DNA of 53,537 nt from Bacteriovoracaceae bacterium. GTDB taxonomy: Bacteria > Bdellovibrionota > UBA1018. Position numbers and translations under genes: made by a program. Of this stretch, positions 34,306-35,533 are shown piece by piece. Below the pieces are notes generated by a model. The model did no database searches. It was not told the origin of the DNA and worked only from the letters and a program-made list of their open reading frames with translations. The stretch lies in the NCBI GenBank assembly GCA_947463705.1, contig CANHSO010000001.1, forward strand, positions 1-53,537. The letters are read 5' to 3'. Numbering within the stretch: the stretch's first letter is position 1; each line of letters begins with the position of its first letter.

Positions 34306-34322
34306 CTCCTGCTCCGTCCCCG
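34306..34322 (+). repeat. 17-bp perfect direct repeat, left copy (CTCCTGCTCCGTCCCCG)
   Basis: It is identical to 35267-35283. Both copies are preceded by CCCGG and 2-3 variable nt. The two copies bracket the vapBC module. Confidence 0.85.
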
Positions 34323-34441
34323 CTTGTTCCCCTACCATTTGGTGACGTTTAGACAAGGTGAGATTTAGGCTGTTCGATCAGCTAACGGGCAGAATCGTTG
34401 GGAAGCACTGGGGACGGGGCACTCTCTATCAAATCACAAGC

Positions 34442-34482
34442 TTGACTGTGTACATAAATAATGAAATTATTGTACAATGAGG
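34442..34482 (+). promoter_or_regulatory. Putative vapBC promoter/operator
   Basis: TTGACT at 34442-34447. TGTACA (34449-34454) and TGTACA (34471-34476) are palindromic half-sites separated by an AT-rich, partly symmetric 16 nt. A GAGG RBS lies at 34479-34482, 7 nt before the ATG. Confidence 0.4.
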
Positions 34483-34489
34483 TAATGTT

Positions 34490-34690
34490 ATGGCAAAAGC
34501 AAATTTTGATCTCCCCGCTGAAACCCTAGCTGAAGTTGTTCGACTTTCAGGCGCAAAATCTAAGCGAGAGGCGCTTGTAATTGCCATGGAGGACTATCTG
34601 CGGAGAAAGAAAATCGAGCGACTGATTCAGTCAGCCGGCAAAATTGAGCTCACCTGGAATCAGGGCAGCTTAAAGAAGTACCGAGGATAA
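34490..34690 (+). CDS. vapB: VapB-type antitoxin (type II TA)
   Basis: The 66-aa ORF sits immediately upstream of the PIN gene with a 5-nt gap. The pattern ..KREALVIAMEDYLRRKKIERL.. is typical of small VapB/DUF2191-like antitoxins. Confidence 0.75.
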   Translation: MAKANFDLPAETLAEVVRLSGAKSKREALVIAMEDYLRRKKIERLIQSAGKIELTWNQGSLKKYRG

Positions 34691-34695
34691 ATCAG

Positions 34696-35091
34696 GTGGC
34701 TGATTTGATCATTGTGGATACCTCAGTTTGGATTGACTATTTTCGCGGGGACGCATCTGATTCTATCGTGAATTCTATGCGGGGATTACTTGATGCCGAT
34801 TCGGTGGCGATTACCGATGTCATTCGACATGAACTAGTCGTCGGCGCTGCAACTTCGAAAGACTATCAAGCTCTAGATGAAATGCTATCAGCACTGCGAG
34901 AGTATTCGCTTACGACAGAAAAGCGCGCCCAGTTTAATTACTTCGCCTTTCAATTAAAGAAACAAGGACTACTAGGAAAATATACCGATGCTTCAATTGC
35001 GTTTTTAGCAAAGGCCCATCATTGTCCTGTTTTCACCCTTGATCGGTGGTTTCATAAATTGGCTGATAAGAAAATCATCCAAGTTTTTTAA
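34696..35091 (+). CDS. vapC: PIN-domain ribonuclease toxin VapC
   Basis: 131 aa with a GTG start. The N-terminus IIVDTSVWIDYFRG is the classic VapC motif. Conserved acidic residues are visible (D..E..D..D) in a PIN-like layout. Confidence 0.85.
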   Translation: MADLIIVDTSVWIDYFRGDASDSIVNSMRGLLDADSVAITDVIRHELVVGAATSKDYQALDEMLSALREYSLTTEKRAQFNYFAFQLKKQGLLGKYTDASIAFLAKAHHCPVFTLDRWFHKLADKKIIQVF

Positions 35092-35129
35092 GACAATGCA
35101 GGAATTAACGCGCAAGTATCCCAATAGCA

Positions 35130-35533
35130 AATCCTTGTAATGAGCAATGATCTCCCAGATTGGAATGTGGGTGACTTCATCTTCGCCGTCAAAGATATTG
35201 ATCACCTCAAAAAGTTCTTGATGATCTGGAATTATTCCCTGCATCAGAACAAACTCTTCCCGGGCGCTCCTGCTCCGTCCCCGTTTTTTGGTCTCGAGTG
35301 CTTACTCGTGACCAATCGACCGGCGCTTCACGATCTTTTTGATCCTCTCGGGCCAGCCTTTGAAGCTCTTCGGAGCGCCCGAGACACTGACTAGCGTCTC
35401 GATGATAGGACTGTGCTTGGGCAGAATGAATCACAATCAAGCAAACTCCAAAAATTCTAACAACTGTAGTGATTCTGGTTTGCAATTTTATCTGCTCCAC
35501 AATGAGATTACCCAAGAGTCCTACCTGAATCAA
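35130..35533 (-). pseudogene. Disrupted paralog of the secreted protein gene 36645..37094
   Basis: Positions 35132-35258 are about 85% identical at the nt level to 36788-36914, coding ..FVLMQGIIPDHQELFEVINIFDGEDEVTHIPIWEIIAHY. The upstream signal-peptide-like ORF (35207..35533) is in a different frame. Homology ends exactly at the 17-bp repeat on one side and near the vapC stop on the other. Confidence 0.6.
35267..35283 (+). repeat. 17-bp perfect direct repeat, right copy (CTCCTGCTCCGTCCCCG)
   Basis: Identical to 34306-34322. Confidence 0.85.

Follow-up and report, generated by a model that had tools for sequence, protein, structure and literature searches.

The vapBC operon described here lies in a 53,537-nt stretch of DNA (contig CANHSO010000001.1, hereafter the window) from an uncultured Bdellovibrionales bacterium, between two perfect copies of a 17-nt repeat that an initial annotation of the window had read as the footprint of a mobile cassette. 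On the comparative analysis, the 17-mers probably belong to an extragenic, genus-specific repeat family, of which they would be 27–29-nt sub-type copies and whose 11-nt core, GCTCCGTCCCC, is the terminal inverted motif found around a multi-copy gene for a predicted Y1/HUH transposase. We consider it probable that these repeats, which are of the REP (repetitive extragenic palindromic)/TIRtron type, mark rearrangements around a toxin–antitoxin module that has itself been retained, with the transposase as the putative cause.

The comparison involved the draft genome that contains the window (G000; 2.17 Mb, 173 contigs), the sole near genome, which belongs to a sister species (G001; locus on contig CANCQK010000003.1), and natural variants of the locus retrieved by exact VapC and VapB look-ups, the contigs so found being given L-numbers (L037, L038, L040 and L041). 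In two other species of the genus the orthologous locus was either too divergent (serS 72–75%) or cut at a contig end.

Repeat family and candidate transposase

The 17-mer CTCCTGCTCCGTCCCCG is present exactly at 34306–34322 and 35267–35283, where the initial annotation had placed it, and nowhere else in the window with up to three mismatches; shuffled versions of the window gave a mean of 0.14 matches, and two matches in 0 of 100 shuffles. The pair is also without further copies in the whole draft genome at up to two mismatches. As had been described, it encloses the vapB promoter, vapB, vapC and a paralog fragment, the last of these measuring 124 nt (35134–35257). Gapless similarity between the two copies reaches beyond the 17-mer to 30 nt at 87% identity (34299–34328 versus 35260–35289). 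The CCCGG noticed before both copies is indeed there, but it is out of register (CCCGG-CA versus CCCGG-GCG) and unconserved in the other contexts of the repeat. The repeat units and the operon are arranged as follows.

34302–34328, plus strand: left repeat unit I_L (GGCA + 17-mer + CTTGTT), core GCTCCGTCCCC at 34311–34321
35263–35291, plus strand: right repeat unit I_R (GGCG + 17-mer + TTTTTTGG), core at 35272–35282
34401–34428, minus strand: inverted repeat unit P', just upstream of the vapB promoter, core GGGGACGGGGC at 34410–34420 (GGGGACGGAGC in L041)
32747–32766, plus strand: canonical family member AAATCGTACTCCGTCCCT, downstream of a helix-turn-helix (HTH) gene, fitting the family consensus AAATTGRGCTCCGTCCC
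34429–34489, plus strand: vapB promoter region, with a palindrome TGTACA...TGTACA at 34449–34478 (likely operator) and sigma-70-like hexamers at 34442–34470
34490–34690, plus strand: vapB antitoxin, 66 aa (Pfam PF09957 VapB_antitoxin, E=1.6e-5)
34696–35091, plus strand: vapC PIN-domain toxin, 131 aa (Pfam PF01850, E=3e-11), with acidic residues D8, E46, D98 and D116 read from the sequence

The two genes are predicted to form a type II VapBC toxin–antitoxin pair, the antitoxin gene lying directly upstream with a 5-nt gap and the toxin carrying the acidic residues of PIN domains. vapC is single-copy in the draft genome; VapC is 96–98% identical across the variants, and the closest homologues beyond them reach at most 52% identity.

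The third motif copy, P', stands in the opposite orientation with the layout GGAAGCACT-core-ACTCTCTA and reads GGGGACGGGGC in G000 and the consensus GGGGACGGAGCAC in L041. This copy had been recognized as a partial inverted version of the 17-mer, as had a related 9-mer downstream of the HTH gene; both exist, but at 34410–34422 and 32757–32765 and not at 34412–34424 and 32758–32766. Fifteen nucleotides of the canonical copy downstream of the HTH gene are identical to a copy elsewhere in the genome (C47:15061). Thus four motif copies fall within 2.6 kb, namely this one and I_L, the inverted P' and I_R around vapBC, and for the three copies within 1 kb the genome-wide expectation is about 0.03. 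In G001, a near-identical 29-nt P' unit follows a higA-like gene 4 kb away (C3:~113370–113398).

Although the 17-mer itself is confined to this pair, so that the suggested search for it beside other cargo genes yielded no further copy, its 11-nt core is frequent genome-wide. The core was counted 38 times in G000 against about 0.5 expected, and related words were similarly abundant (CTCCGTCCCC, 50 copies versus 3.3 expected; GCTCCGTCCCCG, 8 versus 0.2; CTCCGTCCC, 79 versus 13.5). The family consensus is approximately GGSCAAATTGRGCTCCGTCCCC, with conservation ending right after CCCC. Open frames of 120 codons or more take up 92% of the genome, yet they contain just 12 of 49 copies (p ~1e-31). 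The units are 27–29 nt long, sharp-edged and non-palindromic, and their edges are identical in three to four independent contexts; solo copies and copies resembling miniature inverted-repeat transposable elements (MITEs), which have no transposase gene, are dispersed across the genome. Of 75 genomes of the bacterial family surveyed, the 11-mer is enriched in five (G000, 38 copies; G001, 78; G002, 19; G003, 16; G030, 86) and reaches 0–9 copies elsewhere, and the holders of the transposase are exactly those five. The initial annotation had named a common genomic word unrelated to insertion as the finding that would speak against its reading; this applies in part, the core being a common extragenic word tied to a Y1 transposase, but not one unrelated to insertion.

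The 17-mer units have the complete core (11/11), a 12-nt word, TGCTCCGTCCCC, in common with a sub-family, a length of 27–29 nt and an extragenic, clustered position, whereas the 9 nt upstream of the core are off consensus; because of this upstream part, their probable membership of the family rests on the 11–12-nt core, unit size, extragenic position and clustering. Since I_L and I_R carry common extensions that are absent from the rest of the family, we regard them as duplicates of one another, and other small sub-families in the genome resemble this pair, for example CCTTACTCCGTCCCCAA.

The link to a transposase came from a near-match of the 17-mer in G001 (C9:90103), which adjoins a 239-aa gene present many times in G000. 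This gene stands between inverted motif copies, with (A/G)GGGACGGAGC 48 nt ahead of the ATG and ...AAATTGGCTCCGTCCC(C/T) about 270 nt past the stop codon (copies on C103, C37, C134, C19 and C149). With a length of about 1.05 kb, the unit is present in ten or more copies in G001, and matches to the gene, fragments included, number 8 (G000), 15 (G001) and 8 (G003) in the better-assembled three genomes of the genus. Across 43 homologues, H68 of the HxH motif is invariant and H66 is kept in at least 90%, and Y127-x-E-x-N-P-x-R is invariant. Profile matches to NCBIfam REP_Tyr_transpos (E=7e-9) and Pfam Y1_Tnp (E=8e-4) are both below the curated cut-offs, and homologues are named "REP element-mobilizing transposase RayT" by JGI. 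The AlphaFold2 model (pLDDT 93.8) has its best fold match in the PDB with 4ER8 (TnpA_REP), followed by the ISDra2 and IS608 transposases, while a sequence search of the PDB gave no match and the fold search alone succeeded. Motifs and modelled fold together identify the 239-aa protein as a predicted RAYT-like (REP-associated tyrosine transposase) Y1/HUH enzyme. Its IS-like copy number, in place of a single gene, does not agree with a domesticated RAYT, and the multi-copy transposase may still be active.

Other accounts of the repeats themselves were rejected. There is no hairpin (fold z-scores −0.1 to +1.5) and no terminator-like site at the 17-mers that would indicate an intrinsic terminator or structured RNA, and the Rfam search returned no match apart from the tRNA. 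No similarity was found between the 17-mer and the 3' end of tRNA-Ser, as would be expected of an island att site. A longer hidden repeat was likewise dismissed, as the sequences flanking the 17-mer unit in its four contexts could not be significantly aligned to one another, to the paralog or to the copies of the neighbouring FGE-sulfatase-type genes, and the four contexts have in common only GGCR+17-mer+YTTKTT. None of I_L, I_R and P' gave a significant hairpin on folding, and no GTAG/CGTC tag was seen; because hairpin and tag are both missing, the units are classed as repeats of the terminal inverted repeat (TIR) type and not as REPs.

Several further features of the family were recorded. 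Short tandem duplications, nested in one another, follow the CCCC end of many copies (about 900–990 on C149, after the transposase gene; C8:5564, C47:15061, C58:5281, C78:5871 and C144:555), such as AAATTGGCTCCGTCCCTGTGCAC twice, then TGTCCCTGTGCAC and then TCTGTGCAC, or CCCC-AAAAATC-CC-AAAAATC; these duplications resemble traces left where the element end was cut and rejoined again and again. A tandem array of GCTCCGTCCCC with a 12-nt period and at least six units stands at a contig start in G002 (C139:19–89), and eight same-strand motif copies occur within 1.8 kb in G001 (C8:6281–8073). Another PIN-domain (VapC-like) gene, unrelated to the one described here, is found on C37 of G000 (~6900–7130), its end preceding the left end of a truncated transposase element by about 60 nt.

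Rearrangements at vapBC and across the genome

A variable island spans 29.5 to 37.2 kb of the window, with tRNA-Ser(TGA)/serS as its border, and G001 is collinear with G000 at 91–94% on both sides of it. Besides the units listed above, four features bear on the comparison.

35134–35257, minus strand: paralog fragment, internal to a paralog of the small secreted-protein gene 36645–37094, 88% identical to 36792–36915
34082–34298, minus strand: remnant of an FGE-sulfatase-type gene, array copy 3 (C-terminal codons and upstream region)
34329–34400, no strand assigned: unique spacer separating I_L from P', where G001 has an FGE N-terminal fragment instead
37167–37256, minus strand: tRNA-Ser(TGA), fixed edge of the variable island

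G001 holds both 17-mers, 960 nt apart and with the same interior, including the paralog fragment. I_L is kept there (C3:117449–117475), and the DNA on both its sides is non-homologous between the two genomes: on the left, a 2.9-kb operon (yheO-like regulator, aminotransferase, ornithine cyclodeaminase) takes the place of the FGE upstream region, and on the right about 100 nt of an FGE N-terminal fragment replaces the G000 spacer, which has no homologue anywhere in the genome. The left copies of G000 and G001 have only GGCA+17-mer+YTTGTT in common. Homology with G001 resumes at 34429, and the matches of L037 and L041 continue leftwards through P' to 34401 and 34407, respectively; P' has three different left neighbours (in G000, L037 and L041).

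The natural variants differ from G000 immediately beside the units. I_L is missing from all four of them. Three independent metagenome assemblies (L037, L038 and L040) carry vapBC with the right 17-mer only and without the paralog fragment, in the order FGE remnant (= 34086–34185), 34401–35092, a 29-nt unit, ORF6N interior (= 35798–36010), small gene and tRNA. This 29-nt unit corresponds to 35263–35291 with one mismatch in the 17-mer; it follows directly after the vapC stop and is joined to the ORF6N interior. In L041, the first part of the HTH gene (= 32309–32472) is fused to 34407, which removes the left 17-mer. Relative to G000, the sequence missing beside vapBC comprises 34186–34400, 35093–35261 and 32473–34406, and L037 also lacks 35292–35797; each of these four deletions has one end 2–11 nt from a motif core, whereas neither end of a further deletion in L037 (36011–36669) is near a motif. 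An intact ORF6N gene in G000 contrasts with one cut short at both ends in L037, which means that these differences, at least, arose by deletion in the L037 lineage. vapBC was always found at the same tRNA-Ser locus.

An empty site, carrying a single 17-mer and no vapBC, had been proposed as a comparison to make; none was found in the genome-contig or metagenome scans with an extended form of the 17-mer, nor in the four variant contigs. The scan of genome contigs returned only G001, together with chance matches in high-GC genomes. In one chance match, on a metagenome contig (L036, Ga0193743_1001869, 4133–4155), the extended 17-mer encodes ...RSCSVP... in a cysteine-rich frame, CGVCTVLINGAAQRSCSVPV, which we take to resemble 2Fe-2S oxidoreductase small subunits. 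The extended word recurs by chance in GC-rich genomes, one match having been translated, and pattern scans with it call for caution. In addition, an ENA scaffold (L060) and a contig of GCA_947459275.1 (L061) of a 99.96%-identical strain both start at position 35386 of the window, which is about 100 nt beyond the right-hand 17-mer; this shared break suggests an assembly-graph branch that reflects a population polymorphism.

The association of repeats and breakpoints extends beyond vapBC. When 18 motif-centred 300-nt segments of G000 and 18 control segments from the same contigs, 1.2–3 kb away, were compared with G001, 1 of the 18 motif segments was collinear versus 9 of the 18 controls. Homology stops 0–25 nt from the motif in at least 11 of the 18 segments and twice exactly at the motif end, with breaks within 0–2 nt of the motif edge at C31:16390 and C100:3281. 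A 5.4-kb indel begins 10 nt from a motif, and five more motif copies lie between its cassettes. An ATPase gene between two direct motif copies in G001 is largely deleted in G000, the deletion ending about 12 nt from a motif. A 130-nt MITE-like copy, made of a left and a right end without a gene, stands beside a tRNA gene in G000 and is missing in G001. Clean filled/empty pairs were sought for this copy and for the 29-nt P' unit, and both sites proved to be segment replacements and not clean indels.

Interspersed among the minus-strand FGE-type copies and small secreted-protein genes of the island is plus-strand cargo, which consists of two AAA_14/DUF4143 ATPases, the HTH gene, vapBC and an ORF6N-DnaA_C gene. 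The FGE-sulfatase-type genes form a tandem array of paralogs (29504–34298 in the window; C3:108574–114546 in G001) that are intact in G001 (310–383 aa, with signal peptides) and decayed in G000; their C-terminal ~150 nt are 62–82% identical and far more divergent than the common upstream block (~90%). No reverse transcriptase was noticed in the window. A 104-aa gene paired with an HTH_37 gene resembles a higBA-type module in L037 (2526–3126) and G001 (C3:~112940–113370), and a pair of 179 and 231 aa in G001 (C3:109989–111226) appears AbiE-like (HTH and nucleotidyltransferase-like) judging by translation alone. The island gathers mostly toxin–antitoxin-type cassettes. A SEC-C/Xre_MbcA_ParS_C gene (27873–29339) borders it in G000 and the L037-type contigs and has no counterpart there in G001. 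Upstream of the ORF6N gene lies a 43-nt palindrome (35661–35703), the core of which is repeated inside the coding sequence (35950–35977).

Explanations weighed against one another

TnpA_REP and IS200/IS605 enzymes cut and rejoin single-stranded DNA in a sequence-specific manner. By analogy, we propose that the Y1 transposase described above would cut and rejoin single-stranded DNA at or beside the units, and that this action may both disperse the short units and provoke deletions and replacements next to them. vapBC would persist as the constant core of the locus because deletions that remove an addictive module are presumably counter-selected, the loss of a toxin–antitoxin pair being penalised. 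Should the transposase cause the breaks, this would offer a testable route by which HUH enzymes reshape toxin–antitoxin and defence islands; should it not, the pattern shows an addictive operon staying fixed while its neighbours erode.

Several points weigh against this explanation. Characterised RAYT and IS200/IS605 enzymes recognise hairpins, while the units form none, and we know of no biochemical assay of a TIRtron enzyme. GGCRCTCCT, upstream of the core in I_L and I_R, mismatches the family consensus AAATTGR. Half of the nearby control segments are likewise non-collinear, and the breaks near motifs could partly reflect the location of motifs in the short intergenic spacers of accessory regions. 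The comparison covers one close genome and four short variant contigs, and each junction is a putative product of the transposase.

In another reading the motif copies are passive debris, and breaks cluster near them only through their position in the intergenic spacers of an accessory island, gene-sized gains and losses being filtered by selection and vapBC being kept by addiction. Such regions are variable anyway, as the controls indicate, and the motif is strongly intergenic. Against this reading stand several breaks that match the motif edge to within 0–2 nt, the 27–29-nt units with identical edges in independent contexts, and the difference in collinearity between motif and control segments; we regard it as unlikely.

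A second possibility is that vapBC travels as passenger in a non-autonomous form of the transposase element, which would have P' (34410–34420) and I_R (35272–35282) as its ends and be mobilised in trans by the Y1 transposase as a mobile insertion cassette. These two motifs are oriented like the pair flanking the transposase gene (GGGG... facing outward at the left end, ...CCCC at the right), neighbours differ just outside both ends in the natural variants, a polymorphic MITE-like derivative of 130 nt exists, and other cargo genes lie between motif copies in G001. Yet all variants sit at one locus with no second copy, G001 has no P' at the corresponding position, only 11–13 nt resemble true element ends, and the distance from vapC to I_R varies (11 versus 180 nt). 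This makes the passenger reading quite unlikely. The passenger reading is a weaker form of the mobile cassette without a transposase of its own that the initial annotation proposed. That annotation was right in that the repeats do lie at recombination junctions and any enzyme acting on them would be encoded elsewhere.

More broadly, the GCTCCGTCCCC units and the multi-copy Y1/HUH transposase could constitute a cassette-shuffling system in this Bdellovibrionales genus, the units having an integron/attC-like role. They would then insert, delete and exchange toxin–antitoxin and defence cassettes (vapBC, higBA-like, AbiE-like, DUF4143 ATPases) by single-strand cutting and rejoining, and vapBC would be one cassette, mobilisable in trans, in an array beside tRNA-Ser. 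We consider this idea rather improbable.

Least of all can the 17-mers be taken for the duplicated core (attL/attR or a target duplication) left by the insertion or exchange of a 961-bp vapBC cassette through site-specific or microhomology-mediated recombination, a reading that we judge very improbable: the segment of identity is sharp-edged with unrelated DNA on either side in different genomes, as att cores are, and the FGE repeat copy 3 ends at 34298, 8 nt before the left copy, and the paralog fragment at 35257, so that homology is indeed lost 8–9 nt from each copy, but vapBC occurs with a single copy in L037/L038/L040 and with the left copy deleted in L041, so the 17-mers do not delimit a vapBC insertion. 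The same variants are at odds with a transposon target-site duplication. A site-specific recombination cassette with an att core or integron attC was rejected as well, there being no match to the tyrosine recombinase profile PF00589 on contig C1 and no empty site. In addition, the supposed unit includes a fragment of a chromosomal paralog, vapBC is without close homologues elsewhere, and the core is present in 38–78 copies per genome in G000 and G001 and tied to the Y1 transposase.

Relation to known repeat systems

The arrangement recalls cis-mobilisable elements and integron cassettes, with cargo between direct repeats and an enzyme acting in trans, which was the idea of the initial annotation. 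It differs from integron cassettes in having no integrase on the contig, no attC-like structure and no empty site, and in that vapBC persists with one repeat missing.

With IS200/IS605 elements and PATEs it has in common the Y1 HUH fold, a transposase-less, MITE-like derivative and deletions with one end fixed beside an element end. However, IS200/IS605 elements have no inverted repeats, their ends being directly oriented subterminal hairpins, and no cleavage-site logic of that kind is derivable from the units described here.

The arrangement also resembles the REP/BIME/REPIN-RAYT systems, in which a Y1 transposase has as its cognate a short extragenic repeat that flanks the gene in inverted orientation and co-occurs with it (PMC2817692, PMC3116915); the best structural match of the enzyme, 4ER8, is itself TnpA_REP (E. 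coli YafM). In contrast to REPs, the units are non-palindromic and without the GTAG/CGTC tag, and the enzyme is multi-copy and IS-like, not a single domesticated gene, and scores below the NCBIfam cut-off.

In TIRtrons (TIRYT), the gene for a Y1 transposase lies between terminal inverted repeats that are not REPs, are of the GGGGWSAS type and in some genomes also occur as solo, paired or clustered copies (Di Nocera, De Gregorio & Rocco, 2013; PMC3733652). The system described here likewise has a Y1/HUH gene between inverted repeats that start with GGGG, dispersed repeat copies and no REP hairpins. GGGGACGG falls one position short of the TIRtron consensus (7 of 8), which the L037 form of P' (GGGGACAG) matches at 8 of 8. 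The system differs further in having 8–15 gene copies per genome and in the occurrence of units at structural breakpoints and around a toxin–antitoxin operon, which is not described for TIRtrons (PMC3733652). The repeat system therefore belongs to the already known REP/RAYT-TIRtron kind, here in an uncultured Bdellovibrionales genus, and the apparent mobile vapBC cassette becomes a documented case of RAYT/TIRtron-type repeats. What goes beyond a routine instance of this kind is the multi-copy enzyme, the sharp edges of non-palindromic units of 27–29 nt, and the differences between strains and sister species that lie right beside these units.

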